A stretch of 64,000 nt of DNA from an uncultured Bacillota bacterium (GTDB lineage Bacteria; Sysuimicrobiota; Sysuimicrobiia; Sysuimicrobiales; Segetimicrobiaceae). Each line of letters begins with the position of its first letter. The stretch's first letter is position 1. The position numbers and the translations under genes are program-made. The notes beneath the pieces are model-generated. The model saw only the letters and a list, made by a program, of their open reading frames with translations. It made no database searches and was not told where the DNA came from. Below are positions 15,697-64,000 of this stretch, piece after piece. The stretch spans positions 320,001 to 384,000 of the forward strand of contig CAWDRG010000009.1 in assembly GCA_963804645.1 (NCBI GenBank), read 5' to 3'.

Positions 15697-15900
15697 TCAG
15701 TACTGCGCCAGTGTGTTGGAGATGGTCGTGAACAGATCGCCGAGATTCTTGGAGAGCACCGTGAGGACGGCGACCGCGCCGAGGATGACGATGCCGCCGA
15801 TGAGCGCGTATTCGATCATCCCCTGCCCGGCCTCATCGTTCCAGAGCGACGTGCGCTCCCGCCCGCCTTGCCCGGCCCGACCCTGCGTGTGCGCGCCCAT
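15697..15900 (-). CDS. flp: Flp family type IVc pilin
   Basis: 'DEAGQGMIEYALI' Flp motif; AAGGAGGAG RBS. Confidence 0.92.
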   Translation of the reverse strand: MGAHTQGRAGQGGRERTSLWNDEAGQGMIEYALIGGIVILGAVAVLTVLSKNLGDLFTTISNTLAQY

Positions 15901-15944
15901 TCGACTCCTCCTTCGATCTCGTAGTGTGCCGCGAGCCAATATGC

Positions 15945-17747
15945 TCAAGGGTGCGCGGCCGGCGCGTCGGTCGCGGCGACGGTCACCGGCGTGACGAAGA
16001 TCACCAACTCGGTCTCCTGATGCTGGAACTGGGTGGACCGGAAAAGCGGCCCGATGACGGGGAGATCCCCCAAGACCGGAATCTTCTGGATCAGCTCGGC
16101 GTCTTGGTGCTGAAGCAGCCCCCCGAGCACCAGCGTGTCGGACGGACGCATCGACACGACGGTCTCCACGCGCCGGACGCGCAGGGCCGGAATCGTGAAC
16201 CCGTTGACCTTGATCGCGTTGTCGTAGTCGAGCGTGCTGACCTCGGGCGCGATCCGCATGAACAGCCGGCCGTCTTCCTGCGCGTCCGGGCGCGCGTTCA
16301 GAATGACCCCGAAGTCCTTGTACTCGACGGTCACGGCGCCGTTGTCGCCGGCGACGGGAATCGGGACCTGCCCGCCGAGCAGCAGCGACGCCGAGGTCCC
16401 CGCCATCACAACGAGGTTCGGCTCGGCGAGCAGTTTCGCGCGCCCTTGCTGGGCCAGCGCCTGCAGCTGCGCGATCAGCAGGTCCAGCCCCGCCGTGCCC
16501 AGCCCGGGGGTCGTGATGATCTGGAGATTGTACACGCCGCCGTTCAGCGACGGCGGGAAGCCCGGCGTCTGCTCGCCGCCGCCCCACGTCACCCCCAGGT
16601 TGCGGAGGGCGTTGCGATCGATCTCCACGACCTCCACCTGCAGTTGGAACTGCACCGGTCTGCGCACGGTCAGCAAATTGACGACCGTCGGCGCGAACGC
16701 GCGGGCGATTGCCTCGATCTTCTCACGATCGGCCTGCGTCTCGACCGATCCGCTCAAGACGATCCCGCCGGAGCCCTCCGGTCCGCGCGCCGGGACCGCT
16801 CCGGGCCCGGGCGCCTCCGCCGGAGATCGCGCGGCATCCCGCGATGGCGCCGCGATGGGCGAGGAGAGCGCCGGCGCGTTTGAGTCGAGCGCCGGGGGCG
16901 CGGGCGCGGCGGACGGCGCGGTGAGGGTCGCCCCCTCCGGGCCTCCGCCCGGCACCGCCGTCACCGTCACGGCCGCGGTCGGAACCGTCGTCGAGATGAG
17001 GCGCCGGAGCGCGTCCACGAGTCCCGAGGCCGGCGCGACCTCGACCGCGTACGTCCAGATCCGGCCGGTGCGGTCCCACACGTACATCGTGGTGCGGCCC
17101 TGCGACCGCGCGGTCACCAACAGCTGCTCGGCGCTCACGGGCACGACCCCGAGCACCTGCGGGTCGGCGACGGCCACCCGCACCAGGCCGGCGACGTCGA
17201 GGAGCCGTCCGGCGCCCTCCTCGAGCGTGAGCGCCAGCGCGACGTCCGGCGGCGCCGCGTTCCCGCCGGCCGGCGGCCCGGGCACAGACGCGGCGGGCGC
17301 GACCCGAACGGGCGGCGCGGGGACGTGCGCCGCCGCACGGGGTGCCAGGCGAACCACCAGGTTCGGCCCGTCGAAGGATGCCGCGGTCACCGTCATCGCG
17401 GCCCGCGTCGTGACGTCGATCAGGACGTGGCCGCCGAGCGCGCGCACGCCGACGCCGGTCACCAGCCCGACGTTTATCCGGTGCGACGCGGGTGTCGCGG
17501 CGACCCCATCAAGCGTGATGACGACCCGGTTCCCGCTCGCCGACGTCGCGTAGCGCACCGGAGCGGGCAGCACGACGTGCACGCGGATGCCGTCTCCGTC
17601 CGGCTCCACAATCACGCCGCCGAGCGCCGGGACCGACGCCGCGCGGGCCCGATCCGCCACCGGGGCGGCGCCGGCCACGACCGCCGCGGCCGCCACCGAC
17701 GCGAGGACCGCCCGGAGCACCGAGTTCCGTGAGGGGTGAATAGACAT
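15945..17747 (-). CDS. cpaC: Tad secretin RcpA/CpaC (AMIN-like + N-domain + BON + secretin)
   Basis: 'LAEPNL', 'GGQVPIP', 'EYKDFG', 'KIPVLGDLPVIGPLFRS', 'ETELVIFVTP'; start could alternatively be 17771. Confidence 0.9.
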   Translation of the reverse strand: MSIHPSRNSVLRAVLASVAAAAVVAGAAPVADRARAASVPALGGVIVEPDGDGIRVHVVLPAPVRYATSASGNRVVITLDGVAATPASHRINVGLVTGVGVRALGGHVLIDVTTRAAMTVTAASFDGPNLVVRLAPRAAAHVPAPPVRVAPAASVPGPPAGGNAAPPDVALALTLEEGAGRLLDVAGLVRVAVADPQVLGVVPVSAEQLLVTARSQGRTTMYVWDRTGRIWTYAVEVAPASGLVDALRRLISTTVPTAAVTVTAVPGGGPEGATLTAPSAAPAPPALDSNAPALSSPIAAPSRDAARSPAEAPGPGAVPARGPEGSGGIVLSGSVETQADREKIEAIARAFAPTVVNLLTVRRPVQFQLQVEVVEIDRNALRNLGVTWGGGEQTPGFPPSLNGGVYNLQIITTPGLGTAGLDLLIAQLQALAQQGRAKLLAEPNLVVMAGTSASLLLGGQVPIPVAGDNGAVTVEYKDFGVILNARPDAQEDGRLFMRIAPEVSTLDYDNAIKVNGFTIPALRVRRVETVVSMRPSDTLVLGGLLQHQDAELIQKIPVLGDLPVIGPLFRSTQFQHQETELVIFVTPVTVAATDAPAAHP

Positions 17748-17886
17748 CTGACTATGTATACTTATAGACATCACTCTTCGTTCCGTCAATCCCGAACGTG
17801 CGTCTGCGCCGTGCGCGGCGCGCTCGAAGGGAATGGGTCCGCGCATCACGAAAGGCATCGCCCGACGTCCTCGGAGGGAGGATCTG

Positions 17887-18345
17887 GTGCCGAGCACCTT
17901 CGAGGCCCAGCCCCAAACGATCGTCCTCGCGCTCGCGGTCGCCTGCGTGGTGTTGCTCGCGGCGGTCGTCGCGCTTGTGCTCCGCGACCGCCGCCGCAGA
18001 TCGCCCGTGGTGTCGGCGGACGAAGCACTCCGCGCCGCGTTCGCGGAGATCAACCGCCGGCTTGAGGCGCTCGAGGGGGGCGTGGCCAAGATCACGGCGC
18101 ATCTCCCAAAAACCGTTCAGGGCGTCGGCGTCGTCCGCTACAATCCGTTTCCCGACATGGGCGGCGCGATGAGCTTCAGCCTCGCGCTGCTGGACGGCCG
18201 CGCCAACGGCATCGTGGTGAGCGTGCTGAACAACCGCGACAGCGCGAGGGTCTACGGCAAACCGGTGGAAGCCGGCGAGTCGAGCTACACGCTCTCGGAT
18301 GAAGAGCGGCAGGCACTGGCGCTGGCGCGCGGCCAGCGGCGGTAG
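17887..18345 (+). CDS. DUF4446 family protein
   Basis: N-terminal TM; 'VGVVRYNPFPDMGG.MSFSLALLD..NG.V', 'RVYGKP', 'LS.EE..AL'. Confidence 0.85.
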   Translation: MPSTFEAQPQTIVLALAVACVVLLAAVVALVLRDRRRRSPVVSADEALRAAFAEINRRLEALEGGVAKITAHLPKTVQGVGVVRYNPFPDMGGAMSFSLALLDGRANGIVVSVLNNRDSARVYGKPVEAGESSYTLSDEERQALALARGQRR

Positions 18346-45117: not shown

Positions 45118-46411
45118 GGTAGTGTCAAGTGTTTTGTGTAAATTCCCGTGAGAGAGAGCGCCTCGCCTGCCGGACATTCAGAGCCTGAACGATCGCATAG
45201 ATAATCCGATCACAGCTGGCCACGTTCGTGAAGCACGTCATGGGGCGCGTGCGCCGGCGGACTTCGCGAAACACCCGTTCAATCGCGTTCGTCGTGCGCA
45301 CCCGGCGCCAGTCCGCCTCGTTGACGGCATAGAAGCTGAGCAGAGCGTCCTCCTCGCGCGTCAGACAGGCGACCGCCGCGGGGGCGGTGGCCTGCCAGGC
45401 CTGGACCCACTGGCGCAGGAGGCGGCGCGCGGCGTGGGCGGTCGGCGCCTGATAGATTCGGCGCGCCATGCGCAGACACGCGTCCCGGTCCTTGACCCGC
45501 AGCCGATTGGCCACGTTGCGGAGGACATGGACCCAGCACGCTTGGCGCGGGACGTCCGAATAGACCAAATCGAGGGCGGCATGGAGGCCCCGCTGGCCGT
45601 CCGTCGTAATCAGCTGCAACTGCTTCCCGACTAACCCGCGGCAGGCCAGCGTCGTGAGAAAGGCTTCCCAGGTGGTTTGGGTCTCGTAGCGGGCCAGCCG
45701 GAAGTCGATCAGGTCCCGCTGCCCGGTCGGCCGAATGCCGTAGGCCACGAGAATCAAGCGGCGCTTGCTCCCCGCGAGCCCTTTCACCCGGAGGCTGACG
45801 GCGTCGAGGAACAGATACTGATAGTGATCGTCCAGCGTCCGGTGGTGGAAGGCCGCCGCGGCTTGATCCAAGGCCCGGGTGATCGTCGAGACGGTCGTGG
45901 GGCTCACGACATCGTCGAGGAGCTTGGCGAGGACGGGCCCGACCTGGCGGGTGGAGAGGCCGCCGAGGAAGACCGCGCGGACGAGCGCGTTGACGTCACT
46001 GGTGCGGCGCTGATAGCGGCCGAGCACCGAGGGCTGGAACCCACTCTGGCGGGCCCGGGGAAGATGGAGATCGGGGATGGTGCCCCACGTCGTCACCAAG
46101 CGGCGGCGGTAGACGCCATTCCGATACCCCTGCCGGTCCGGATTCCGAGTGTACCGGCCGGCATTCAGATGGTTGATCAACTCGTCATGCATCCGGTTCT
46201 CCAGCAAGAGCTTGACCGTGCGGAGCGTCTCTCGGGAGACATCCCCCCACAGGGTCGCTTCATCCTTGACCTCCTTCCAGAGATCGGCTACGGTGAGATC
46301 GGTCAGTGGTCGCACACTGGCCATGGGCGTATCCCTCCTTATGGTTGGTCAGGTCGGGGTACGCCCTCTCTTTTCGGGCTCCTGCTTTTACACACAATAC
46401 CGTACACTACC
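45118..46411 (-). mobile_element. IS256-family insertion sequence
   Basis: Imperfect TIRs GGTAGTGTCAAGTGTTTTGTGTAAA and (revcomp) GGTAGTGTACGGTATTGTGTGTAAA; flanking direct repeat GCACCG(G) at 45112 and 46412. Confidence 0.92.
45125..46324 (-). CDS. IS256-family (Mutator-like) DDE transposase
   Basis: YRNG, PR.R..F, GLSTR, YLFLDA, TTDG..GL, QACWVH..RN, RTTNAIER.FRE.RRR. Confidence 0.95.
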   Translation of the reverse strand: MASVRPLTDLTVADLWKEVKDEATLWGDVSRETLRTVKLLLENRMHDELINHLNAGRYTRNPDRQGYRNGVYRRRLVTTWGTIPDLHLPRARQSGFQPSVLGRYQRRTSDVNALVRAVFLGGLSTRQVGPVLAKLLDDVVSPTTVSTITRALDQAAAAFHHRTLDDHYQYLFLDAVSLRVKGLAGSKRRLILVAYGIRPTGQRDLIDFRLARYETQTTWEAFLTTLACRGLVGKQLQLITTDGQRGLHAALDLVYSDVPRQACWVHVLRNVANRLRVKDRDACLRMARRIYQAPTAHAARRLLRQWVQAWQATAPAAVACLTREEDALLSFYAVNEADWRRVRTTNAIERVFREVRRRTRPMTCFTNVASCDRIIYAIVQALNVRQARRSLSREFTQNT

Positions 46412-50025: not shown

Positions 50026-52869
50026 GTGAGCATTGCCCAGCAGCTAGAACGCATCCCGCCCCAAAACCTCGAAGCGGAACAGGGCGTGCTGGGATCGATG
50101 CTGCTCGACCGCGACGCCATCGCCCGCGTTATCGAATCGCTGCGCGCGGAAGATTTCTATCGCGACGCCCACCGTGTGATTTACATGGCGATGACCGAAC
50201 TGTTCGAGCGCGGAGAGCCCGTGGATCTGATCACGGTTACAAACCGCCTCACCGTACAGGGCAAGATCGATGACATCGGCGGCGCCACATACCTTGCGTC
50301 GCTCCCGAACGTCGTCCCCACTGCCGCAAACGTGGACTTCTACGGCAGCATCGTGATGGAAAAATCCATGCTGCGCCAGCTGATCAGTGCCGGCACGCAC
50401 ATCGCCGCGCTTGGGTACGACGCCGCAGACGACGTCGCCGCCCTGATTGACCAGGCCGAAAAGATGGTGTTCGGCATCGCCGCCCGCCGGAATGTTCAAG
50501 ACTTCCAGGCGATCAAGGAGATCCTTAAGGAGAGCTTCGATAAGATCGACAAGCGCTATCAGGAAAAGGGCACCGTCACGGGGGTCGCGACCGGATTCAC
50601 CGACCTCGACATGCTTACCTCCGGTCTCCAAGACTCCGACATGGTGATCGTCGCAGCCCGGCCATCGGTCGGCAAGTGTTTGACCGCCGACGCCGAGATC
50701 CTCCTGGCGGACGGCAGCATCGTCACCATCGGCGAGATCTACCGGCGGCGGCAAGGACGGCTGATGACGCTCGGGAACGACTGGCGATTCCGGTTCACGG
50801 AACCGTCGGCGTTCGTGGACGACGGCCTGAAGCCCGCGTTCCGCGTCACCACCCGGCTCGGACGCCGGGTCGAGACGACGGCGAGCCATCCGTTTCTGAC
50901 GCTCGACGGCTGGCTGCCGCTTGCCGCGCTCCGCACCGGAGACCGCATTGCAGTGCCGCGCCGTCTCAGTGTATTCGGCAACAAACCCATGCGCGAGTGC
51001 GAGGTGAAGCTCCTCGCGTACTTCATCGGAGATGGCTCACTGACAGGCGGCAAGGCCGCATTCACGAACACAGATCCCACCATGCTGCGCGATTTCTCGG
51101 CAGCCGTGCGCGCGTTTGGCGGCGTGCGCTGCCGTCGTGAGCGTGATTGTAGTGGCCGGCGCGCGCCGACGCTCGCCGTCGCAGGGAATCCGATGTTCCG
51201 CCGACAGCAACGCCGCGAGTTCGCCGGGCAGCTTCGTGCGGCGCTGGGGACAGCCCGCGGTGCCCGGGCCAGCCTGGCGCGAGCGCTCGACGTCACCCCG
51301 GCGGCCGTGCTCGGCTGGTGTCGAGGCGAGCAGGTCCCGAAGGCACACCGGTTTGCGCAGTTGTGCGGGGTGGTCGGCGTACCACCCGACCGCCTCGCGC
51401 CGCACGGTTTTCCGCCTGTGAGCCGCAGCAGCCAGAACCCCGTCGTCCTCTGGCTGCAGGCCCTCGGACTCTGGGAAAAGAAGGCGGCGGAGAAGCGGCT
51501 GCCGGCGGCGGTCTTTACACTGCCGAAGGCGCAATCCGCCCTCTTTCTGAACCGGCTGTTCGCAACGGACGGATGGGCCGCGGCGAACGCAGTGACCCGT
51601 TTGGCGCACGTTGGATACGCGTCGAGCAGCGAACATCTCGTGCGGCAGATCCAACATCTGCTGCTTCGCTTTGGGATCGTCGCTTCCGTTCGGAGGCGCA
51701 GTGTCCGCTATCTTCGCGAACTACGCACAGCGTGGGAGCTGTGCATCACGGATCCCGCCTCGATTCGCACGTTTGCCGAGGAGATCGGGATCTTCCGCAA
51801 GGAGCGCAAACTACAGCAGGCGCTCACGGTCGTCGCCCGGCGGGGTCGTATCCCGAATCGCGACACCATCCCGCGAGCGGTATGGCGCACGATGGCTGAC
51901 GCGAAGGGCGCCGAGTCGTGGGCGTCGCTTGCACGGCGCGCTGGCTGGGCGAATACCGGAAACGTCCACGTCGGAGTACGCGCACCGTCGCGAGATCGCC
52001 TCTTGACGTTCGCAACAGCTCTCGCCCACGACGGCTTGCGGCAGCTCGCCCACAGCGACGTGTACTGGGACGAGATCGTGGCGATCGAACCGACGGGCGA
52101 GAAACAAGTCTATGATCTTACGATTCCGGAGACCCACAACTTTGTCGCCAACGACATCTGCGTACACAACACGACCTTTGCGCTCAACATCGCGCAGCAC
52201 GCCGCACTCACCCGCAAGATCCCGGTGGCGATCTTCAGCCTTGAGACGAGCAAGGAGCAGCTGGTCCAGCGCATCCTCTGCTCGGAAGCACAGGTGGACA
52301 ACAGCAAACTCCGCACCGGGTTCCTGGCGGACGAGGACTGGCGCAAACTGGCCCGCGCGATGGGAGGACTCAGCGAAGCCCCCATCTTCATCGATGATTC
52401 GGCGACGCTCTCCGTCATCGAGATGCGGGCAAAAGCCCGGAAGCTCAAGGCCGAGCATGGGCTCGGGCTGATCGTGATCGATTACATCCAGCTCATTCAA
52501 TCGTACCGGCGTACCGAGAACCGCACCCAGGAGCTCAGCGAGATCGCCCGCAACATCAAGTCGCTCGCCAAGGAGCTCGCTATTCCGATCATTGCGATCT
52601 CACAGCTCAGCCGCGCCGTCGAGGCGCTCGGGCAGAAGCGCCCGATGCTGAGCCACCTGCGCGAGAGCGGCGAGATCGAACAGGTGAGCGACCTCGTGCT
52701 GTTTCTCTATCGTGAGGATTACTACGATCAGGAGAAGGCGCACAAGGAGAACAAGGAAAATATCTGCGAGATCATCATCGCCAAGCACCGCAACGGTCCG
52801 ATCGGCACCGTGGAACTGTACTTCCACAAGGAGCACAGTCGGTTCGACAATCTGTCAAAACAACGATAA
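50026..52869 (+). CDS. dnaB: replicative DNA helicase DnaB (intein-containing)
   Basis: PPQNLEAEQ.VLG, AARPSVGK|T Walker A split by the intein, IDYIQL, SQLSR, LRESG.IEQ, AKHRNGP.G. Confidence 0.97.
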   Translation: MSIAQQLERIPPQNLEAEQGVLGSMLLDRDAIARVIESLRAEDFYRDAHRVIYMAMTELFERGEPVDLITVTNRLTVQGKIDDIGGATYLASLPNVVPTAANVDFYGSIVMEKSMLRQLISAGTHIAALGYDAADDVAALIDQAEKMVFGIAARRNVQDFQAIKEILKESFDKIDKRYQEKGTVTGVATGFTDLDMLTSGLQDSDMVIVAARPSVGKCLTADAEILLADGSIVTIGEIYRRRQGRLMTLGNDWRFRFTEPSAFVDDGLKPAFRVTTRLGRRVETTASHPFLTLDGWLPLAALRTGDRIAVPRRLSVFGNKPMRECEVKLLAYFIGDGSLTGGKAAFTNTDPTMLRDFSAAVRAFGGVRCRRERDCSGRRAPTLAVAGNPMFRRQQRREFAGQLRAALGTARGARASLARALDVTPAAVLGWCRGEQVPKAHRFAQLCGVVGVPPDRLAPHGFPPVSRSSQNPVVLWLQALGLWEKKAAEKRLPAAVFTLPKAQSALFLNRLFATDGWAAANAVTRLAHVGYASSSEHLVRQIQHLLLRFGIVASVRRRSVRYLRELRTAWELCITDPASIRTFAEEIGIFRKERKLQQALTVVARRGRIPNRDTIPRAVWRTMADAKGAESWASLARRAGWANTGNVHVGVRAPSRDRLLTFATALAHDGLRQLAHSDVYWDEIVAIEPTGEKQVYDLTIPETHNFVANDICVHNTTFALNIAQHAALTRKIPVAIFSLETSKEQLVQRILCSEAQVDNSKLRTGFLADEDWRKLARAMGGLSEAPIFIDDSATLSVIEMRAKARKLKAEHGLGLIVIDYIQLIQSYRRTENRTQELSEIARNIKSLAKELAIPIIAISQLSRAVEALGQKRPMLSHLRESGEIEQVSDLVLFLYREDYYDQEKAHKENKENICEIIIAKHRNGPIGTVELYFHKEHSRFDNLSKQR
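50677..52170 (+). mobile_element. intein with LAGLIDADG homing endonuclease (498 aa) in the DnaB P-loop
   Basis: CLTAD N-terminus, block B TASHPF, LAYFIGDG and FLNRLFATDG motifs, VYDLTI..THNFVAN...VHN|T C-terminus. Confidence 0.95.
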
Positions 52870-52893
52870 CTACTGCGGCGGCGGAGTAGTAGT

Positions 52894-55121
52894 TGTAGGA
52901 TTCGATCCTATCTTGGCAATATCGAAGATATCTCGACATGGCAATTGTGAGGATATCGTGTGCCAGCGGGTGTTGATCCCAGCGAACGTATTGTGTCGCT
53001 ATCGCGCGCGCTGCGCTGTGGATGGGCGGGCGGCCCGTACGGGCCGCCCGCCCGGTTGACGCTTCGACTACTGTCCGTGCTTTGCCATGGCTTCCTCGAT
53101 CTTCGCTTTCACCGCATCGAGGTTGAAGCTCGCGCCCTTCTGCGCCGGCGGGAACTCGATAGCCGTCATGGCCAGCTTCGCCACTCGCTGTTGGACGAAC
53201 ACGAAGCGCCAGAACTCGAATCTGAACCAGTCGAAGTATTGGTAGGATCCGAGATTTCCGTTCCCTTGTGGCCACGTCGTCTTCTCGAAGGGATCGAGGC
53301 GCAGGTTCACGAGCAGCGGCACGTCCGGGTGGTCCTTGGTACCAATCCAGCCGCCGGGCTGCACGATGAAAGTATATTTGAAGTCGTCGATCCGTACCGC
53401 GGCGAGGTTGCTCTCAGTAAAGTAGAAGATCTCGTTGCGGGCGGATGGCCCCTTGCCGGTGATCAGATCCATCTGATTGTAGCCGTCCAGATGCGTCTTG
53501 TACGTCGTTCCGCCGAGTTGTTTCCCCTTCTTGAGCTCATCGGCGATGTTCGGGTTGCCGGCCGCGGCCACGAAGGTCGCAAACCAATCCTGGCCCGAGA
53601 TGATGCCAGGCTCCACCACGCCGGCGGGGACCTTACCGGGCCAGCGAATCATCGCGGGACAACGGAACCCGCCTTCATAGCCCGTACCTTTGGCACCGTA
53701 AAACGGCGTCTGTCCGCCGTCGGGCCAGGTGAAGCTTTCCGTGCCGTTGTCGGTGGTGAACATGACGATGGTGTTGTCGTCCAGCTCGTTGTCTTTCAAG
53801 TACTGCATGAGCGCGCCGACGCTGTCGTCGAGCTGGGCCATGCCGGCTTCGTGAATGGTCCAGCCGTTCTTCGAATTCTGCAGGGCTTCGTACTTCGGCG
53901 ACAGATGGGTGACGATGTGCATGCGGGTCGGGTTGAACCAGAGGAAAAACGGTTTGCCGGCCGCCTTAGCCTTGTCGACGAACTTGAGGCTGGCCGCGAG
54001 AATTTCGTCGTCCACGGTCTCCATCCGCTTGGGATACAGCGTGCCGGCGTCCTCGATCTTCTGCTTGCCGACCTTGCCCCAGCGCGGCATCACCGTCGGG
54101 TCGTCCGTGTCCGTGGCCCACGAATGGACCATGTTGCGCGGGCCGACCGTGTTCAATAACTCCTGCGGATAGGCGGGGTGGGCGGGGTCCTCCATGGCGT
54201 CGAGGTGGTAGAGATAGCCGAAGAACTCGTCAAAGCCGTGGACCGTGGGCAGGTACTTATTCATGTCGCCCAAGTGGTTCTTCCCGAACTGCCCGGTCGC
54301 GTAGCCCATCTCTTTGAGGGCCGTCGCGATCGTCGGCGCAGAATCCGGCATCCCGACATCCGCCCCCGCCTGGCCGACGGTCGTGAGACCCGTGCGCATC
54401 GGGAGCTGGCCGGTGATGAACGCCGCCCGCCCCGCCGTGCAGCTTGCCTCCCCGTAGTAATCGGTGAACAGCATGCCTTCGCCGGCGAGCTTGTCGAGGT
54501 GCGGCGTCCGCCCGGCCATCATACCTCGATGGTACGCCCCGATATTCCAGATGCCGATGTCATCGGCCATGATCACGACGATGTTTGGTTGTTTTGTCGC
54601 CAACTTCGACCTCCGCAGTCAATTTTGAACCCTCTCCGAGTGAGCGTGATCCCTCGTCGACTGACGGGCACCCTGCTCAGAGCCGTCCGGAACTGCAGTC
54701 ACCCCCTACGGATTCCGTCGTCGGTACGCTAGATCCGTGTGGCTCATGACATGGGCCGTCACGCCACTCGGACGGCCCAACCTGACCGAAAGACACTTGA
54801 AGATCGCTCGAGGGGGAATGACAACACCAAGAAGCACGTGGTGTTGCGTATTTGCATTCCCGATCTGTGCCCGTCGGAGGGGAGCCGGAATTTCCGAGAG
54901 TCTACGGGGAGATTAATGCGGCGGCCGTAGTCCGCCGGACCGAGCGAAGATGCCGGACTGTATGCGCCGATCGCCCTCCGCCAGTTCCCCCCAAGTCTAG
55001 CACTTGGGAAAGCGAATGGCCCATAGGAATTGCTAAGATATCCCGTCTCGAAGGTGCTCTGACGGGCGACTTTTGCCAAGATCTCCCCGGCCGGATTGCT
55101 AAGATAGGATCAAATCCTACA
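52894..55121. mobile_element. cassette 1: TIR-bounded non-autonomous element carrying a sulfatase
   Basis: Left end TGTAGGATTCGATCCTATCTTGGCAAT; right end revcomp TGTAGGATTTGATCCTATCTTAGCAAT; internal 11-bp repeats. Confidence 0.8.
53068..54603 (-). CDS. arylsulfatase (Cys-type, FGly-dependent)
   Basis: PNIVVIMADD, SCTAGRAAFITG, GKNHLG, TTDNG; TTG start with GGAGG RBS. Confidence 0.93.
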   Translation of the reverse strand: MATKQPNIVVIMADDIGIWNIGAYHRGMMAGRTPHLDKLAGEGMLFTDYYGEASCTAGRAAFITGQLPMRTGLTTVGQAGADVGMPDSAPTIATALKEMGYATGQFGKNHLGDMNKYLPTVHGFDEFFGYLYHLDAMEDPAHPAYPQELLNTVGPRNMVHSWATDTDDPTVMPRWGKVGKQKIEDAGTLYPKRMETVDDEILAASLKFVDKAKAAGKPFFLWFNPTRMHIVTHLSPKYEALQNSKNGWTIHEAGMAQLDDSVGALMQYLKDNELDDNTIVMFTTDNGTESFTWPDGGQTPFYGAKGTGYEGGFRCPAMIRWPGKVPAGVVEPGIISGQDWFATFVAAAGNPNIADELKKGKQLGGTTYKTHLDGYNQMDLITGKGPSARNEIFYFTESNLAAVRIDDFKYTFIVQPGGWIGTKDHPDVPLLVNLRLDPFEKTTWPQGNGNLGSYQYFDWFRFEFWRFVFVQQRVAKLAMTAIEFPPAQKGASFNLDAVKAKIEEAMAKHGQ

Positions 55122-55129
55122 CGACGACT

Positions 55130-57122
55130 TGTAGGATGCGATCCTATCTTGACAAAGTCGAAGATATCTCGGTAATGCGTTAGCAATTGCCAAGATATCC
55201 ACGCAGACCTCAATGCGGATCTACGGAATGGGGAGGACGAGAAGAATCGGAAGCGAGGACGGACATAACGAAGAAGAAGGGGGAGCGACCGCCGACATCC
55301 AACGAAATGACGGCCCGGCACCTGGACGTACTCCAGGCGAATCTACCACGGCCGAGAACGGGCGAGTCCCCCGATGAGTGAAGGAAGTGGCTCGATTCCT
55401 ATCGAACGCGAGGCGAACAGAGACAAGACGACTTAAATTAGGCCCCAGCGCCACGAGACTGCCTGATCGGCCCTCACATCGCAGCGCCAGCACGCACTAT
55501 CCGGAGGATCGCGCGATGGATATCACCGTCCAGAACGGCTTGAGCGTTCCCGTGTACAGCTCCGTGGGCCACAGCGACGGCTGGCAGGTGGCCGACCTCC
55601 TGGGGAACACGGCGGGCTTGGTCACGGGCGTTACCGCCTTCGCAGAGGTCTCGGGGTTGGTTACGGTCATCAACGCGATCCAATTGGGAAACGCCGGCTT
55701 GGCCGCGGCGCAGCGGATCCCCGGCATTCTTCAGAAGTTCTGCTTCACCGTGCAGCCGGGCATGAGCCAATCGGCACGCGAGGCCATCGGGATCGCCGAT
55801 CAGTTCCGCGCGAGCTACTGGAACGATCTGTTCGGCGGCAAGAGCCTAGGCGTGTTCATGTCTAATACCGAACACGCCGTGCTGGTCAACGCCAGCACCA
55901 TCACGCCCCGCACGTACCGCGTCGAGGCCAAGGGGGCGCGGGAGGGCGGGTTTCTTCACCGCTGGGGCGAGCCTGGCTACTACTCCACGATGAATACGTC
56001 GGCACCGCCGTCCGTCGTCGCGTTCGGAGGCAAGTATCACATGTTCTTCCGCGACGGCAGCGGCAACGGCATCTTGCACGCCACCTCCGACGAGGGGATC
56101 TACTGGAAGGGCGCGGACCCATTCTATATCGGCGTCAACACCAGCTCCGCGCCGGCACCGGTGGTGTACAACAACCAGGTCTACATCTTCTTCCGCGACG
56201 GAGCGGGCAACGGCATCCTGTATGTCGTCTCCAAGGACGGCTACACGTTTACGGCACCGCAGAACTGGTACATCGGTCTGAATTGTGACGCGCAACCCTC
56301 GGTGACCGTCCACAACGGAGCGCTCCACCTGGTCGCGCGCGACCACGGGGGGGCCGGCGTCATGTACGCGTATCAAACCGCCACGGGATGGCAGCACGGG
56401 TACACGGGAGAGAACACGTCCGCGCCGCCGGCGGTCATCTCGTTCGCGAATCGCCTGCATGTCTTCTATAAGGACGGCGGCGCCAACAACGGCGTATTGC
56501 ACATGGTGTCCGACGACGGCGTCCACTACCGGCGCGCCGACGTCTACCACCCCGACATCACGACAAGCGCGGGACCCTGCCCGTTAGTCTATCGCGGAAA
56601 CCTGCTGCTGCTGTTTCGCGACGGGACGGGAAACGGCGTGCTCTACAGTATCTCCGCCGACGGCACCCAGTTTACCAACCCGCCCGATTGGTACCTGGGA
56701 CTGAACATCGACAACGAACCGTCGGCCGCCGTGCTGGGCGACCACCTCTGCATTCTGGGAAGGGACCCGGGCGGCAACGGGGTAATGTCGCAGGTCCCGG
56801 ACCTCAGTCCTTAGTCCGAGGGGGATCGGATGTGTTCAACACGCCCCGCGCAGACGCTGTTCGTCTGCGCGGGGCGCTGGTTGATCACCACGTCCTACTT
56901 ACAAAAAGAGCTAGACTATCGGCATCCGGAAGAGAGGCTATATCAGCGCGCGCTGCAAACCTGCGGATAACCACGTAATCCCTCGACTTTTATAGGAGCC
57001 CATTATCATGGGCGCGACGATCCGTAGGAATTGCTAAGATATCGCCCCTCCAACGGTCTTTGCCAGGCTACTTTTGCTAAGATATCCCCGGCCAAATTGC
57101 TAAGATAAGATCAAATCCTACA
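55130..57122. mobile_element. cassette 2: TIR-bounded element carrying a beta-propeller protein
   Basis: TGTAGGATGCGATCCTATCTTGACAA ... TTGCTAAGATAAGATCAAATCCTACA; same site spacing as cassette 1. Confidence 0.8.
55516..56814 (+). CDS. hypothetical protein with six ~47-aa repeats (probable beta-propeller)
   Basis: GGAGG RBS; repeats 'NTS.PP.V..F......FFRDG.GNG.L...S.DG..F'. Confidence 0.8.
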   Translation: MDITVQNGLSVPVYSSVGHSDGWQVADLLGNTAGLVTGVTAFAEVSGLVTVINAIQLGNAGLAAAQRIPGILQKFCFTVQPGMSQSAREAIGIADQFRASYWNDLFGGKSLGVFMSNTEHAVLVNASTITPRTYRVEAKGAREGGFLHRWGEPGYYSTMNTSAPPSVVAFGGKYHMFFRDGSGNGILHATSDEGIYWKGADPFYIGVNTSSAPAPVVYNNQVYIFFRDGAGNGILYVVSKDGYTFTAPQNWYIGLNCDAQPSVTVHNGALHLVARDHGGAGVMYAYQTATGWQHGYTGENTSAPPAVISFANRLHVFYKDGGANNGVLHMVSDDGVHYRRADVYHPDITTSAGPCPLVYRGNLLLLFRDGTGNGVLYSISADGTQFTNPPDWYLGLNIDNEPSAAVLGDHLCILGRDPGGNGVMSQVPDLSP

Positions 57123-57131
57123 CTACATGTA

Positions 57132-57213
57132 CGCAGGATCGATCCGATCTTGGCAATTTCAAAGATATCTCGGCAACGTGTTGGCAGTAGCCGAGATACG
57201 ATCAAATCCTGCA
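57132..57213. repeat. empty mini-unit (left end fused to a right terminus)
   Basis: CGCAGGATCGATCCGATCTTGGCAA...TATCTCGGCAA...TAGCCGAGATACGATCAAATCCTGCA. Confidence 0.65.
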
Positions 57214-57348
57214 ACACCCCCCACAGCAGACCGGTTGCTGTGTGTGAACAGCAGATCCTAATAGGTCTTTCCCCCCGTCACTTTGATGCCGGACGCCGAC
57301 ATCGCCATCGACGGCGGGCAGACACCCAGCGTGCGGAGCGGACCGAGA

Positions 57349-59379
57349 ATGGCAGATAAGCACGTGCATCTCACCCAGCGCTTCGCGATAAAGACGACGC
57401 CGGTCTTGCAGGCGCTGTTGATCGTCGCCGCGGGAGTGTGGGTCTTCTATCCTGCTATCCATGGCCAGTGGCTCTGGGATGATGACGTCCTCATTACAAA
57501 CAATCTACTGATCCACGATCCGGCGGGACTCTGGAAGACCTGGTTCGCCCCGACCATGAGTTTGATCGACTACTTCCCGATCACGGTCAGCGTGGAATGG
57601 CTGGCGTGGCGTGCGTGGGGACTGAACACGTTTGGCTACCATCTCACGAGTATCGTGCTGCACCTCACCAGCGCGCTGCTGGTGTGGCGTCTGTTGAGCA
57701 AACTGGGAATCCGGCTGGCGTGGCTGGGCGGACTCCTGTTTGCCATTCACCCGGTGATGGTGGAATCGGTGGCCTGGATCGCAGAACTCAAGAACACCCT
57801 CTCCCTACCTCCATTCCTGATCGCGATGTGCGCGTGGATCGACTACGAGGAACACGGGAAATGGACACACTACTGGCTGGCTCTCGGCCTGTTTCTCGTC
57901 GCGATGCTCTGCAAGACCACGATGGTGATGTTCCCGTTCGTGATCCTGCTCTATGCCTGGTGGAAGCGAGGGCGGATACGGGTCCGGGATCTGACAGGGA
58001 GCGCGCCCTTCTTCGTTGTGTCGCTCGTGCTGGGGCTCACCACGATGTGGTTCTTGCATCATGCGATGGCTCCCCAGGCCGTCCAACTCGGCGGCTTTCT
58101 CTCTCGCGTGGCATGCGCGGGTCTGTCGCTCGCGTTTTATTTCTCCAAGTCCGTGCTGCCCATTGGACTACTCCCGACGTATCCTCAATGGGCGGTCGGT
58201 CGCCCATCGCTGGTACAGTTTCTGCCGTGGCCGATTCTCGGTGGCGTGCTCTACCTATGCTGGGCCAACCGCGCCAGCTGGGGCCGGCATGCATTGCTCG
58301 GGCTCGGCTTCTTTCTCATCAACCTGGCACCTTTTGTGGGATTCACCGCGGCTGCGTACATGGACTTTACCTGGGTCATGGACCACACCCTGTACATTCC
58401 CTTGATTGGCTTAATTGGACTGGCGACGGCGGGGCTGGGCTGGCTCGACGATCGGGTGCCCGCGTCTACCCGGCCCTACGGCATCGGGATGGTCACGGTG
58501 GTGCTGGTCCTCTTGGCCGTCAGCAGCCGTGCGTACGCCGGACTCTACGTCAACCCAGAGACGCTGTGGACGTATACCGTTGAACGCAACTCCGACGCGT
58601 GGCTGGCTTACGATAACCTCGGCTATACGCTCACCAAGGCCGGAAAGTTTACGGAAGCAATCGGAGAATTTGAGCAGGCCCTCCGCATTAATCCCAATTA
58701 TGCCTCCACGCATGACGACCTCGGCACCGCCTTGTTCCGCGTCGGCCGGCTTCGGGAAGCGCAGCGTGAAGTCGAACAGGCCTTGCGGATCGACCCTGAT
58801 TCCGCCACCGCCCACAACAACCTGGCGACCATTCTGGTGCACCTCGGACGAATCCCAGAAGCCATTCAACAATTTCAGGCCGCCGTGCGGATCAATCCCA
58901 ATGATGCCGAGGCGCACAACGGCATGGGTACTGCCCTGGTCCAGAACGGTCAGTATGCGGATGCGGTGGAAGAATTCGAAGCGGCCTTGCAAATCAATCC
59001 TGATTTTTCCGAGGTCCACGACAACCTGGGGGCCATGCTCGCCCACTTCGGACAAATCCCCGAGGCCATTGAACAATTTCAGGCCGCCGTGCGGATCAAT
59101 CCCAATGATGCCGAGGCGCACTACGACATGGGGTTCGCCTTGACCCAGACCGGCCGGGATGAGGACGCCTTGGAAGAATTCGAAGCGGCCGTGCGGATCA
59201 ATCCCGATTTTGCCGAGGCTCACAACAATCTGGGGGTCATTCTGGCACGCCGCGGACGTATCCCAGAGGCCATTCAGCAATTTCAGGCCGCTGTGCAGAT
59301 CAATCCCAATTACACTGAGGCGCGACGTAATCTGACCCGCGTGCTCAATCGCGAGAAGACCTCTCCGCCCAGGCGCTAA
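57349..59379 (+). CDS. TMTC-like membrane protein (GT-C-like domain + about 8 TPRs)
   Basis: WLWDDD motif, 'GYHLTS..LH', 'LFAIHP..VESVAWI.E.K', C-terminal TPR array with DNA-level repeats. Confidence 0.85.
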   Translation: MADKHVHLTQRFAIKTTPVLQALLIVAAGVWVFYPAIHGQWLWDDDVLITNNLLIHDPAGLWKTWFAPTMSLIDYFPITVSVEWLAWRAWGLNTFGYHLTSIVLHLTSALLVWRLLSKLGIRLAWLGGLLFAIHPVMVESVAWIAELKNTLSLPPFLIAMCAWIDYEEHGKWTHYWLALGLFLVAMLCKTTMVMFPFVILLYAWWKRGRIRVRDLTGSAPFFVVSLVLGLTTMWFLHHAMAPQAVQLGGFLSRVACAGLSLAFYFSKSVLPIGLLPTYPQWAVGRPSLVQFLPWPILGGVLYLCWANRASWGRHALLGLGFFLINLAPFVGFTAAAYMDFTWVMDHTLYIPLIGLIGLATAGLGWLDDRVPASTRPYGIGMVTVVLVLLAVSSRAYAGLYVNPETLWTYTVERNSDAWLAYDNLGYTLTKAGKFTEAIGEFEQALRINPNYASTHDDLGTALFRVGRLREAQREVEQALRIDPDSATAHNNLATILVHLGRIPEAIQQFQAAVRINPNDAEAHNGMGTALVQNGQYADAVEEFEAALQINPDFSEVHDNLGAMLAHFGQIPEAIEQFQAAVRINPNDAEAHYDMGFALTQTGRDEDALEEFEAAVRINPDFAEAHNNLGVILARRGRIPEAIQQFQAAVQINPNYTEARRNLTRVLNREKTSPPRR

Positions 59380-59720
59380 GGCCTCTCAGATGTGGAGATA
59401 CGCCCGCTGAAACGGTGGGGCCAGAGGCCCGACAAGCGAGTGAATTCCCAGATCACTGAGGCCAGGCGACGCCCCGTAGGAATCGTTGAGATAGCCCCCG
59501 TGCCCCGCGAAGTTGCGTGGCGCGTCACAACGCGCAAGCAAGGGCAGAATGCCCGAATTCGCGCGAGAAAAGTGGGCCAAAGTATGAGTGATCGTTGAGG
59601 TCATTTGGCCCGCGTTGGCACCGCCGGGTGTGCGGGCTTTCTCGCTCCGCTCGGGGCGCTGGCCCGTTGAGCACGTCCGAAGCTCGATTCCACTGATAGA
59701 TGGGGGCGTGGGACACCCCG

Positions 59721-59845
59721 AAGGAATTGCTAGGATAGGCCCCGTTCGAAGACACCGCGTCGGACGCTCTTGCCAAGTTACGATCAGATCCTACAGCTAT
59801 AGTAGCAATACCGAAACAATGTCATGGCAACCGCCAACATATCCT
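59721..59845. repeat. degenerate cassette junction (right end at 59795 + remnant left end)
   Basis: TTGCTAGGATA (59727), TTGCCAAGTTA (59770), CGATCAGATCCTACA ending 59795, then TATAGTAGCAATACCGAA...CATGGCAACCGCCAACATATCC. Confidence 0.7.
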
Positions 59846-59999
59846 GAGCAAACAGGACCTAGCGCGAGCGACCAGAAAGACGGACGGTCACCGCGCCGCG
59901 GCACAATCATCGCAATCGTCTTCGCCGTCCGACGACAGCGCGCGTCGACGACAATGCGTGTCGCCCCCCGAACTAGACGCATAGGCGGCCGCTCGCCCC

Positions 60000-62000
60000 T
60001 TAAACCGACGATTCGCGTGGATCGACCGATGTGGTGTGCACCGGCAGGTCTTTGCGCCACCGCCGCTGGAACACCTGCCGACCGTCAAGGTCCGCTTCCA
60101 CGTCGACATGGATCACAAACGGCGTGGCCAACAGATTGGCTCGGATCGACACGCTGCCCGCGGAGCGGCGGTGCTGCACCAGGACCTCCGCGCGCAGGTT
60201 CGCCGTCCACGGACGATCGGCATCGGTGGTCACGATGCCGTGGTAATCCAGTCCCGTAATCGTGTGCGCGTCGAACCCCTGCTCGTAGTGGAACGTGGCT
60301 TCGTAGCTGACCGTCTTGCCGATAAGATCTCGGTGCACGACATGCGTTTCATCCGACCGCACGCCCGCGGAGAGACGCAGGAGACCGTCAGCATCGGCGG
60401 CCGGAAGCGACGGCGCGGGCAGCCCGGCGCCCCGGTCCGAGATGATCGGCAACTCGACCAGCGACGCCCTGGCGCCACCATAGTGAATCTGGAGTTCGTA
60501 CGGTTCGGGCGTGGGCCAGATCTCGGGGAAATCGGCGCCCGCGAGACACAGGCGCAAGCGGTGGCCCGCCGGTACCACCCGGCAGACCGGTGAGAGCGCC
60601 AGTGAGATCTGGCGGACTTCGTCGCGTGCCAGCGGGCGACGTGGATCGTGGGCGCTCTGCTGGCTGACGTTGGTCCATTCACGTGCGATGACGATGGAGC
60701 CGCCCCGGGGATCGACCTCGCAGAGCTTTACCGCAAGGGAGGGTGCTGGTGTGGTCGCAGACAGTACGACGTGGGCGATTGGTGTGCCACCCAGCTCGAG
60801 GTCCGAGGCGAGCGGCGGAGTCGTGTAGGAGAGTGAGCGATGGTCGTCCGCACTTTGATCGCTCGGCAATGGGATGCCGGCGATGCCGCCGTGCAGGGCC
60901 ACCGATTCGATGCCGACGCGCGAGTCATATACCCAGGTGTCCGACCCCGCGCGCTGCTCGTCCTCCCCGCGCGACAGTCGACCATCCGGGCCAACACGGA
61001 ACGCGACGCGCTCGGCGCGCGCGAGCGGCCAGTCAGCTTCGTACCGCCAGTAACCAGCGCCGAGGACATACACCGTCACCGGGGGCTCGCGATCCACGCC
61101 ATTCTCTATTCCCTTGAGCCAGCGATCCCACCACCGGTCCATTTCACGGAGCGCGCCGATCGGGTGCACGGGAGAGAAATCCGGGAATGCATGCTTCCAC
61201 GGTCCCATCAGGATGCGTTTCGGTCCGTGAAGGGCTTCGTAGACCATGAAGCTGGGTCCCGCGTACTTGTCGTGCCAACCCGAGATAAGAAACGTCGGGA
61301 CCGCAATGCGCTCGTACGGAACGCGGCGGCGAAGCCAGAAGTCGGGATCCGGAGGCTCGCCGTGCCATGAGAGGAGCCACGGCATGTTGGCCTCGAGCCG
61401 TTCGCGCCAAATCTCCAGCCACCGGTCGCCGTCCTCTTGGATGAGGGGCGGGGCCAGGTTCGTGGCCACCAGGCGGGGGGCCCAACTTACCTCGTTGTAC
61501 ATCAGCCCCTGGCATCCGTGGGGACGCAGGTACCAGTCGTAGTTGTCGAAGGTCCCGTGGATCGGGACGATCGCCTTCAAGTGCTGCGGGCGCGTCGAGG
61601 CGATGCTAAGGGACGTGCATCCACCGTAGGAAGTGCCCCACAAGCCGACGGCCCCGGTACACCAGGGCTGCACTGCGATCCACTCCACGACGGCATGTCC
61701 ATCCGCCCGCTCCTGAGGATCAAACGGAAATGGGTTCGTGCCTTCGGAGCAGCCCACGCCGCGAAAGTCCACGTCCAGGGTGGCGTAACCGCGGCTCGCG
61801 AAGTGCTGGTGCGCCGCCGCGCGTATCGCGGCACTTCGCGTGCCGTCCTTATGGTACGGCGTAAAGGAGAACACCGCAGGAAACGGCCCCCCGGTATCGG
61901 GCAGCAGCAGATTCGCCGCCAGCTGCACACCATCTGGCATGGGGATCCGGATGTTGCGCGCCGCCTTCAGACCCGAAGCCGCGGTGTTTGACGATGGCAT
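60000..62000 (-). CDS. CocE/NonD family hydrolase (peptidase S15-like)
   Basis: IPMPDGV.LAA, TPYHKD, D.RG.G.SEG, GTSYGG nucleophile, GW.D, GPW.H. Confidence 0.9.
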   Translation of the reverse strand: MPSSNTAASGLKAARNIRIPMPDGVQLAANLLLPDTGGPFPAVFSFTPYHKDGTRSAAIRAAAHQHFASRGYATLDVDFRGVGCSEGTNPFPFDPQERADGHAVVEWIAVQPWCTGAVGLWGTSYGGCTSLSIASTRPQHLKAIVPIHGTFDNYDWYLRPHGCQGLMYNEVSWAPRLVATNLAPPLIQEDGDRWLEIWRERLEANMPWLLSWHGEPPDPDFWLRRRVPYERIAVPTFLISGWHDKYAGPSFMVYEALHGPKRILMGPWKHAFPDFSPVHPIGALREMDRWWDRWLKGIENGVDREPPVTVYVLGAGYWRYEADWPLARAERVAFRVGPDGRLSRGEDEQRAGSDTWVYDSRVGIESVALHGGIAGIPLPSDQSADDHRSLSYTTPPLASDLELGGTPIAHVVLSATTPAPSLAVKLCEVDPRGGSIVIAREWTNVSQQSAHDPRRPLARDEVRQISLALSPVCRVVPAGHRLRLCLAGADFPEIWPTPEPYELQIHYGGARASLVELPIISDRGAGLPAPSLPAADADGLLRLSAGVRSDETHVVHRDLIGKTVSYEATFHYEQGFDAHTITGLDYHGIVTTDADRPWTANLRAEVLVQHRRSAGSVSIRANLLATPFVIHVDVEADLDGRQVFQRRWRKDLPVHTTSVDPRESSV

Positions 62001-62255
62001 CTCTCGCCCCCTACATACCACGTGATCGCGTAGGTGCTGGTCTCGAGACGCCTGGGCATCGGGTCACCGGTGGCCCGCCGACGACTCAAGACCCTCGTCG
62101 CAATCACCGAACCGCTCGTCCAGGAATCCCATCCCGTCGGAGCCACCGACGTCGGGTGCGCCGCGCGTCGATGGCCGACGCACGGATCCGTCCAATGGGG
62201 ACCGTAGAGAGAACCGACGTACTCGCCGAATCCGCGCAGAGAATGGGTACGTCCA

Positions 62256-63203
62256 TCAATCGAACGCAAACACCCGCTTCCAATCACGCTTCATGTCAAC
62301 GACGGTCCAGCCGTGCGCGTGGGCTTCGTCGAGCGCCTTGTTGAGGGTTCCGAGGACGGCGCGCTCGTACGCGTATTCGCGCTCGGCGTCGGTGTGGTGA
62401 ATGAGTCCCATGAAGCGGGCGCCGGCACCTGCCGCCGTCCACTGCAACATCGGCAGATCGCCGTCGCTGTTGCCGAAAGCAAGAATCGGGCGGCGCCCGA
62501 TATACCGATAGATCGCGACCGGTTTGCCTGAGCCGTCGTCTACGAAGTTGATCTTGGCCTCTCGCATGAGCACGGGCTTGCCGTCCGGCCCCATCATAAA
62601 CTGGGTGACGCAGGACGAGCCGACCACTTGCTCGGGGGGAATGCCGTAGACGCGCTCGGCGAACGCGTACATGAACTCGATGCCGCCGCCCGACACGATG
62701 AAAGTCTTGAACCCATTGGCACGTAGATAGGTGAGCAGTTCAATCATCGGTTGGTAGACCACTGCACTGTACTCGCACTTGAATCTCAGATCACGCGCAC
62801 TGGCGAACCAATCTTTGACGATGCGCTGGAACTCCTCCGTGGTCATGCCGGCATGGGTGGCCCCGACCACATCAACGAGCCCGCGCTCACCCGACTGCGC
62901 GAGCGTCTTCAGATCCCCTTCGAGCGCCGCCTTGAATGGTTGCGTCTCCTTCCACTCGGGGTGCGCAGAGGCGAGCGCCTTCAGCCGGTCGAGCGCAAAC
63001 GCGAACTGGACCGGCACCGGCTGCTCGCACCAGAGCGTGCCGTCGTTGTCGAACGTGGCGATGCGTTCCTCGGGCCGCATGAAGTCCGGTCCGCCCTCAT
63101 GGGTCACCTTGGCGACATACTCGATGATGGCCTGTTTGCTCGCGCCATTGTTCCATGACGGAAGCGGATCGGACTGCGCCGGCGAACCGGCATTAGGACT
63201 CAT
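62256..63203 (-). CDS. HAD-family hydrolase (acid phosphatase-like)
   Basis: FDNDGTLWCEQP, IVSGGG, GNSDGD. Confidence 0.9.
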   Translation of the reverse strand: MSPNAGSPAQSDPLPSWNNGASKQAIIEYVAKVTHEGGPDFMRPEERIATFDNDGTLWCEQPVPVQFAFALDRLKALASAHPEWKETQPFKAALEGDLKTLAQSGERGLVDVVGATHAGMTTEEFQRIVKDWFASARDLRFKCEYSAVVYQPMIELLTYLRANGFKTFIVSGGGIEFMYAFAERVYGIPPEQVVGSSCVTQFMMGPDGKPVLMREAKINFVDDGSGKPVAIYRYIGRRPILAFGNSDGDLPMLQWTAAGAGARFMGLIHHTDAEREYAYERAVLGTLNKALDEAHAHGWTVVDMKRDWKRVFAFD

Positions 63204-63260
63204 CGCATCCCCAGGTGACGTGATGACCACCCCGCATAGTATGCCCCGCGCCCGCTGCAG

Positions 63261-63623
63261 TCACTCGCGCCAACCCTCTCGGTGTCGGAAGAAACCCGTG
63301 TTGCCGATCCTAAATACGTGCTCTTCCTGATAGGCTGGACACTGTTCCGCCTGGGCGGCGGAAATGCTCAACTGGACCGCGTGCTCGGTGATCCGCGCGA
63401 CCAACGCCGCCGACGCCATCCGGGGCGATGACCACAGACGATGTCGAAACCCGACGCCGTGGAAGATGTCCCGCTCGGGATCGCCGAGCGCGTGTGTCAC
63501 GTGGCCGATCGAGGTGCCGTCCGCCGCGAAGACCGGCATCCCGGTGGCAATCATCCGCCACGAAACGACGTCGTCGCTGTTGTCGCTGTTTGCAGGAGGC
63601 TCGTAGGAATCCGTCATATCCAC
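63261..63623 (-). CDS. PRC-barrel-like hypothetical protein
   Basis: 'GMPVFAADG..IG.V..' PRC-type motif. Confidence 0.55.
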   Translation of the reverse strand: MDMTDSYEPPANSDNSDDVVSWRMIATGMPVFAADGTSIGHVTHALGDPERDIFHGVGFRHRLWSSPRMASAALVARITEHAVQLSISAAQAEQCPAYQEEHVFRIGNTGFFRHREGWRE

Positions 63624-63691
63624 CGCTTCGCACGCGGCGTGTCATCGCCCTTCCACACCAGGCGCCCCGACTCCGGTGGGACCCGCGTCCC

Positions 63692-64000
63692 CTACCGCAG
63701 CGTGCTTGCAAATAACCCCGTCAGTTTCTCGAATGCACGCTCCGCCTGTGGTCGGTTGTACACAGGGCTGTCCGGCACTGTCCAACCGTGACGCGCACCC
63801 TCGTAGACCTCGCTCTCATACCGCCCGCCCCACGCTGCGAGCGCGCCGTCGAACTTCTTGATCGCCTCTTCAGGCATGCTGCGATCCTCAACCGCGTGGC
63901 CGAAATAGAGCCGGGCGCGGATGCGCGGCAACGCAAGATGCGGGCTGTCCGGGCTGTCGGTATAGAGCCCGCCGCCGTGAAAGGACGCGGCCGCGGTGAC
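63692..64000 (-). CDS. dienelactone hydrolase family protein (5' truncated by window)
   Basis: AAASFHGGGL.TD.PDSPH, YFGHA..D, YEGA.HGW. Confidence 0.85.
   Translation of the reverse strand, partial: VTAAASFHGGGLYTDSPDSPHLALPRIRARLYFGHAVEDRSMPEEAIKKFDGALAAWGGRYESEVYEGARHGWTVPDSPVYNRPQAERAFEKLTGLFASTLR

Follow-up and report, generated by a model that had tools for sequence, protein, structure and literature searches.

Tn7 inserts at attTn7, just past the stop codon of an essential conserved gene that is left intact, and TnsD, a protein of the TniQ family, reads the coding sequence at the 3' end of this gene, glmS (PMC11406308). The present study addresses an array of short transposon-like units that occupies a similar position behind dnaB, the gene of the replicative helicase, in a stretch of 64,000 nucleotides (hereafter the window) from an uncultured Bacillota bacterium of the GTDB family Segetimicrobiaceae (GenBank assembly GCA_963804645.1, contig CAWDRG010000009.1, positions 320,001 to 384,000). 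The units follow each other head to tail. There are at least three of them, the first starting at 52894, directly behind dnaB, and the far edge of the island that they form lies outside the window. Each cassette would consist of one ordinary gene between inverted TGT...ACA termini with two to three subterminal ATTGCYAAGATATC sites. There is about an even chance that the array, taken as a whole, represents non-autonomous cassettes of the Tn7/Mu type that were mobilised in trans and accumulated beside dnaB.

The likeness to Tn7 at attTn7 is not limited to the position past the stop codon of an intact gene. It extends to TGT/ACA termini, subterminal site arrays, a compact end turned to the target gene and a single orientation. 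However, the target gene here is dnaB, no tns genes are found in or near the units, no 5-bp duplication is seen, and several same-site units are stacked despite the target immunity that would be expected. Islands built by repeated insertion at or beside one site, with residents sometimes disrupted, are also formed by Tn6022/AbaR elements in comM and by telomeric Tn7-like transposons (PMC11014353, bioRxiv 10.1101/2024.11.13.623437). These elements carry their own tnsABC/tniQ genes and leave traceable 5-bp duplications, whereas the dnaB array consists of cargo-only units of 0.08-2.7 kb without duplication.

Other described systems share some features with the array. Mobile insertion cassettes (MICs) and MITEs, the miniature transposable elements with inverted repeats, are non-autonomous: in the former, the ends of an insertion sequence (IS) surround a passenger gene, and the miniature version is gene-free. 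Like them, the units behind dnaB show inverted transposon ends around DNA that is not devoted to transposition, units 1 and 2 holding one ordinary gene each and an 82-nt element none. However, the MICs known so far stem from IS families of a simple type (IS231, Tn3-like) and display plain inverted repeats and scattered insertion sites, whereas the ends of the dnaB array are multi-site and asymmetric and its units are stacked at one site. In integron arrays, the newest cassette is the one nearest the entry point. Like integron arrays and tycheposon islands (for the latter, bioRxiv 10.1101/2020.12.28.424599), the dnaB array piles up small cargo units, arranged head to tail, at a set place in the chromosome, presumably with the newest nearest the entry. 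Integrons and tycheposons use tyrosine recombinases and att/attC sites, whereas the dnaB array has DDE-like termini and the window does not encode any recombinase.

Transposon-type ends behind dnaB

The TAA stop codon of dnaB (52867-52869) and a TGT terminus (52894-52896) are separated by 24 nt (52870-52893). The helicase gene itself is intact, since its product, 947 residues long, matches DnaB_C as far as residue 942. From 52894 onward, a stretch of 27 nt (TGTAGGATTCGATCCTATCTTGGCAAT) reappears downstream in inverted copies. A 20-nt end pattern with 16 specified positions, searched with up to three mismatches allowed, has seven matches in the window against 0.16 expected, a number reached by none of 100 shuffles. 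All of them lie within 52894-59795 and proximal (dnaB-side) and distal ends alternate strictly, one of the seven being a shifted overlap of another. The 14-nt subterminal site ATTGCYAAGATATC has 20 matches against 1.5 expected, 17 of which are located between 52907 and 59843. Furthermore, a profile trained on six of the ends also picks up another one, at 57133-57176 (E 2e-7), that was left out of the training, and has no other match with E < 0.03 in the window.

The proximal ends (P1, P2 and P3, numbered from dnaB) and the distal ends (D1 to D4) have distinct architectures. The TGT/ACA termini are exact in P1, P2, D1, D2 and D4; those of P3 and D3 are CGC/GCA. The proximal ends have three site copies packed in 64-70 nt, the innermost copy being reversed and the middle one legible on both strands around a GATATC palindrome. 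In the distal ends, the three copies are spaced out along 97 nt and occupy positions 14-27, 37-50 and 80-93, counted from the tip. In all units the orientation is the same, with the compact end toward dnaB and the spread end away from it. In Tn7, the end that faces glmS is the right end. This right end carries closely packed sites and the left end spaced sites (PMC11406308), and TGT/ACA termini with asymmetric subterminal arrays of sites of about 20 nt are a signature of DDE transposons of the TnsB/MuA type (PMC11014353, PMC11406308). The TGT at 52894 is thus supported as a genuine transposon-type terminus with a Tn7-like end architecture.

Organization of the array and decay of its ends

From dnaB outward, the order is P1, a sulfatase gene, D1, a spacer, P2, a second gene, D2, a spacer, the 82-nt mini-element, a gene encoding a TPR/PMT_2 protein, D4 and a truncated proximal end (Table 1). 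The original prediction, drawn from the letters of the sequence, placed a TGT terminus 24 nt past the dnaB TAA, which the coordinates given above bear out. It also reported only a left end; this holds for the interval 52860-52960 but not beyond it, as the partner end is found 2.2 kb downstream and closes the first unit at 55121.

The distal ends D1 and D2 are identical at 83 of 98 positions. The spacers between units, 8-9 nt long, are CGACGACT (between D1 and P2) and CTACATGTA, and are unrelated to each other. As the ends are alike and the spacers are not, the junctions are independent and do not result from simple duplications. The quality of the ends drops away from dnaB: in the terminal 27 nt, mismatches to the consensus number 1 in P1, 1 in D1, 4 in P2, 2 in D2, 5 in D3 and 4 in D4, and the fifth proximal end is truncated. 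Such a gradient would be explained by the entry of new cassettes on the dnaB side. Indeed, units in one orientation behind dnaB, with ends decaying outward, are what repeated entry beside this gene would give, and the layout supports such entry.

The mini-element differs from the other units in that both its ends read GCAGGAT (not GTAGGAT), with a C in P3 in place of the terminal T. This element may represent a MITE from a sister subfamily or, alternatively, the actual proximal end of the unit with the TPR gene. Its 82 nt form a hairpin of -17.8 kcal/mol (z -4.3). Unless P3 plays this part, D4 lacks an intact proximal partner. The proximal-type sequence that follows D4 lacks the first 13 nt, its alignment with P1 and P2 starting at end position 14 and proceeding inward. 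In local alignments, shuffled sequences reach the observed score in 7 of 500 cases with P1, 4 of 500 with P2 and 154 of 500 with P3, and two site-like matches lie where they are expected (59796 and 59830). The DNA further out (59851..64000) is probably older island DNA, the boundary of which would lie beyond the window.

Table 1. Features of the dnaB region and of the adjacent array (positions in the window)
Feature	Position	Strand	Remarks
dnaB, replicative helicase, with intein	50026..52869	+	Pfam and NCBIfam matches; start codon predicted
Gap between dnaB stop and first terminus	52870..52893	+	24 nt; from the sequence
P1, dnaB-proximal end of unit 1	52894..52957	+	Starts TGTAGGAT; 3 site copies in 64 nt
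Unit 1	52894..55121		2228 bp; inverted termini P1 and D1
Arylsulfatase-family protein	53068..54603	-	511 aa; sole cargo of unit 1; Pfam Sulfatase 5e-51; NCBIfam
D1, dnaB-distal end of unit 1	55025..55121	+	3 site copies over 97 nt; ends ...CCTACA
Spacer between D1 and P2	55122..55129		8 nt; CGACGACT
Unit 2	55130..57122		1993 bp; P2 55130-55199, D2 57026-57122
Cargo protein, family unassigned	55378..56814	+	478 aa; sole gene of unit 2; sub-threshold BNR_2 match
Mini-element	57132..57213		82 nt; P3 and D3
TPR-repeat protein with N-terminal PMT_2 glycosyltransferase-like region	57283..59379	+	698 aa; between mini-element and D4
D4, distal-type end	59722..59795	+	74 nt; without middle site copy
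Truncated, diverged proximal-type end	59796..59850	+	Directly abuts D4
CocE/NonD hydrolase and HAD hydrolase genes	59851..64000	- (genes)	GC below core

The 3' end of dnaB as a putative landing site

If the array is a stack of trans-mobilised cassettes, its subterminal sites would bind a DDE transposase of the TnsB/MuA type, encoded elsewhere in the genome, that would move the cassettes in trans. A TniQ/TnsD-like selector would read the conserved final codons of dnaB and direct insertion about 24 nt past the stop codon, in the manner of TnsD at glmS. New cassettes would then enter at the dnaB side and displace the older ones outward. The tail of DnaB (...HKEHSRFDNL...) is kept in all but one of the 40 closest relatives listed, the exception showing a divergent extension. 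With distances such as those of Tn7, an offset of 24 nt would bring the final codons of dnaB (...SRFDNL...) into the zone read by a TnsD-like protein. That a TniQ/TnsD-like protein recognises the 3' end of dnaB would fit this geometry, seen at a single locus, and may be put forward tentatively, the balance leaning against it. Trans-mobilisation is known for Tn7-like elements with intact ends (PMC11837452), as are tandem Tn7-like insertions that disrupt resident elements (bioRxiv 10.1101/2024.11.13.623437). It is unlikely, on present evidence, that the dnaB 3' end is the dedicated landing site, in soil bacteria akin to Gaiellales, of an undescribed Tn7-superfamily lineage whose transposase-free single-gene cassettes stack in an integron-like way, target immunity being weak or absent.

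Several results weigh against cassettes of the Tn7/Mu type accumulating at dnaB. Among 59 open reading frames (ORFs) examined in the window, none encodes TnsA, TnsB, TnsC, TniQ or an integrase/recombinase, and the sole transposase is encoded by an unrelated IS256-family gene. A target-site duplication of 3-9 nt was sought for every pairing of ends and none was found, the best cases agreeing at 3 of 5 and 5 of 8 positions, whereas Tn7 and all of its relatives are characterised by a duplication of 5 bp (PMC11406308, PMC11014353). Moreover, a fixed entry point predicts identical 5-mer spacers, and those observed are neither of this length nor related. Target immunity of the Tn7 type strongly blocks a second insertion beside the same binding sites, although Tn6022 provides natural exceptions (both PMC11014353); the stacking of units with a common site motif would suggest that immunity is not strong here. 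The 24-nt offset means little when taken alone, as an intergenic insertion always lies near the end of some gene. Finally, the claim that is specific to dnaB relies on a single locus, with no empty site for comparison, and the search for related ends did not provide others. A scan of 185,579 species representatives with the end motif (about 19.5 specified positions, flanks of 10 kb) gave a single locus and, at that stringency, no relative of the ends. This sole match, in a metagenome-assembled genome (MAG) of a gammaproteobacterium, lies within an ORF, the DNA there being AT-rich and devoid of subterminal repeats, and was rejected as a chance match.

Searches with other parts of the array were likewise negative. 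Plasmids, phages and the genome scan gave no match that would point to an autonomous element sharing these ends. The junction 55015-55205 does not match plasmids or phages by distant blastn, and the junction-spanning ORF 54902..55321 (- strand), used as a protein query, gives 68 candidates, none of which is significant. Guide-RNA-like copies of the dnaB 3' end amount to chance matches of 10-15 nt, none of them in 52.9-64 kb.

The original prediction, which proposed that a TniQ/TnsD-like factor reads the dnaB 3' end, is therefore upheld in part. The terminus is genuinely Tn7-like, dnaB is intact and the units are stacked in the same orientation; on the other side, TniQ, TnsB and TnsC are not found in the window and there is no 5-bp duplication. 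In the prediction, dnaB was not known as a described target, and the literature searched agrees with it. No paper was found that links dnaB to Tn7-like or TniQ targeting or that gives it as an attachment site, bioRxiv supplements and any attachment-site tables in them lying outside the scope of this search. The name dnaB is absent from the main text and the supplements examined of two large Tn7 surveys (PMC10293859 and PMC8649781), a paper that mentions Tn7, dnaB and TniQ together uses DnaB only as a negative control, and none of the papers found on DNA downstream of dnaB is about mobile elements according to title and abstract.

Alternative origins of the array

The same cassettes may lie beside dnaB without any recognition of this gene, their position being incidental; this is rather doubtful. 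Three routes would lead to such a position: attraction of new units to the end of a resident one, the single arrival of a composite assembled elsewhere, or deletions that started from an end and halted at an essential gene. The absence of duplications and the variable length and sequence of the spacers agree with an incidental placement and are unlike the outcome of repeated insertion at one point of dnaB. D4 directly abuts a truncated proximal end, which indicates that the ends themselves were hit or eroded, and the disruption of resident elements by Tn7-like insertions in tandem is documented (bioRxiv 10.1101/2024.11.13.623437). The restriction to one locus points in the same direction. However, the first insertion still landed 24 nt past an intact, conserved and essential gene, with its compact end toward this gene as in Tn7, and insertion directed by the ends would also leave a duplication, whereas none is found.

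Site-specific recombination is a distinctly less probable origin. Under this hypothesis, the abutted ends and their spacer would together form a recombination site, the spacer acting as coupling sequence, and circular cassettes would build an integron-like or tandem integrative stack. Such an origin would account for the lack of duplications, for the short and variable spacers and for the head-to-tail order of single-gene cassettes with the older ones distal. The shape of the junctions also speaks for it, as they are imperfect palindromes, with arms of about 27 nt around 8-9 nt, and show strong folding of the single strand (-16.4 and -14.6 kcal/mol, with z of -6.3 and -5.2). However, neither the window nor the surroundings of the array contain a gene for an integrase or recombinase, and what precedes the first cassette is dnaB instead of an integrase gene and an attI site. 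Furthermore, the putative crossover regions differ between sites and the chromosome side of P1 is unlike a distal half-site. In the remnant that follows D4, the inner portion of a proximal end is present and the core-proximal one is absent, whereas an attB half-site would show the opposite. Lastly, TGT/ACA termini with subterminal site arrays mark DDE transposons (PMC11014353, PMC11406308).

That the repeats are immobile operator or promoter modules of a regulator of the neighbouring genes is extremely improbable: two junctions do lie upstream of + strand genes (55378.. and 57283..) and the 14-nt site recurs in an operator-like way, but P1 is found where two convergent genes end, a place that offers promoters and operators no role, D4 is on the downstream side of its gene, the repeats are arranged as inverted termini with exact TGT/ACA boundaries, and the interval 52700-60100 contains no sigma-70-like promoter (against 2.5 expected), no promoter or terminator signal that exceeds shuffled sequences and no credible Rfam family.

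Cargo genes and base composition

The DNA beyond dnaB was also predicted to be less GC-rich than the core genes, and this is confirmed. The GC content is 0.703 in 1-47000, 0.605 in unit 1, 0.609 in unit 2, 0.598 in 57128-59795 and 0.647 in 59796-64000; it therefore falls to about 0.60 in the array and stays under the core level up to the end of the window, with the caveat that dnaB itself reaches only 0.635. With its GC content of 0.60-0.61 and a sulfatase family common to several lineages and to rhizobial plasmids, the cargo looks foreign in composition and sequence.

The relatives of the sulfatase of unit 1 are 78-100% identical to it across all 120 clusters listed, and proteins about 80% identical are encoded by MAGs named Terriglobales, Thermoguttaceae, Myxococcota, Deltaproteobacteria and Pseudomonadales. 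Compared with genes of rhizobial plasmids, the identity is 80.8% for the protein and 77.6% for the DNA; this homology is restricted to the coding region and ends of the array type are absent there. A rhizobial donor was considered and dropped, given the homologues of about 80% identity in MAGs of several phyla. On a Bradyrhizobium plasmid (3812-5527 of the locus compared), the 80.8%-identical arylsulfatase gene directly follows a gene for a formylglycine-generating enzyme, a partner that is not present in unit 1. Between P1 and the sulfatase stop codon, unit 1 also contains a perfect GC-rich palindrome of 15+15 nt (53024-53053), which is probably a terminator. The only Rfam match in 52700-60100, to Transposase-2 RNA, lies near this palindrome; with an E-value of 0.69 and a score far under the gathering score, it is not credible.

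The cargo protein of unit 2 matches no Pfam or NCBIfam family above threshold, and its best plasmid matches are Tolypothrix proteins annotated as GH18 (26.6% identity). Its gene includes a 58-nt repeat in three copies (56039, 56183 and 56606). The TPR gene carries three tandem repeats of 204 nt (58610-59317), 69-70% identical, that reflect TPR modules. For the other proteins of the island, matches to plasmids do not exceed 37% identity and are uninformative.

dnaB and its neighbourhood

The dnaB gene is the last one of a conserved housekeeping cluster, rpsF-ssb-rpsR-DUF2232-rplI-dnaB. Its product matches the DnaB N- and C-terminal domains, with an intein in between (about aa 226-715) that includes a homing-endonuclease domain (LAGLIDADG_3) and weakly matches HTH_31, and scores 843 bits against the NCBIfam replicative DNA helicase model NF005852 (cutoff 780). 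Its relatives are between 584 and 1379 aa long, a spread that points to inteins being variable or multiple. At least 90% identity over at least 99% of the C-terminal extein is found in 17 of the 120 DnaB clusters listed, and the closest named relative among the matches listed is a Gaiellales MAG.

An inverted repeat at 52869-52890, in the gap behind the stop codon, forms a small stem-loop (DNA fold of -7.1 kcal/mol, z -3.7). By eye, the final codons of dnaB (52851-52870) hold TGTCAA and GATAAC, 6 nt apart, which loosely resemble the TTGYCAAGATA core of the end sites, a likeness that may be a coincidence; they lie 23 nt from P1, and the terminal D1 site lies 21 nt from P2.

Just upstream of the rpsF-to-dnaB cluster is the IS256-family transposase gene (45125..46324, - strand), the ends of which are unrelated to the TGT/ACA ends. 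Further upstream, a Tad/Flp pilus cluster (8500-18100) includes a secretin gene (15945..18095, - strand). A secretin is unexpected in a single-membrane lineage, and the closest named DnaB relative listed is actinobacterial.

Implications

Should relatives show the same ends scattered at other loci, the array would belong to an ordinary family of decayed non-autonomous elements. Conversely, if dnaB is indeed the landing site, the array would represent a transposase-driven platform for gene cassettes anchored on the replicative helicase gene. This gene would then join the short list of Tn7-type safe-harbour sites, and cargo-only cassettes would accumulate at such a site without the usual rule of one insertion. 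The finding would therefore bear on target immunity, on trans-mobilisation in nature and on the formation of islands in poorly studied high-GC soil lineages.

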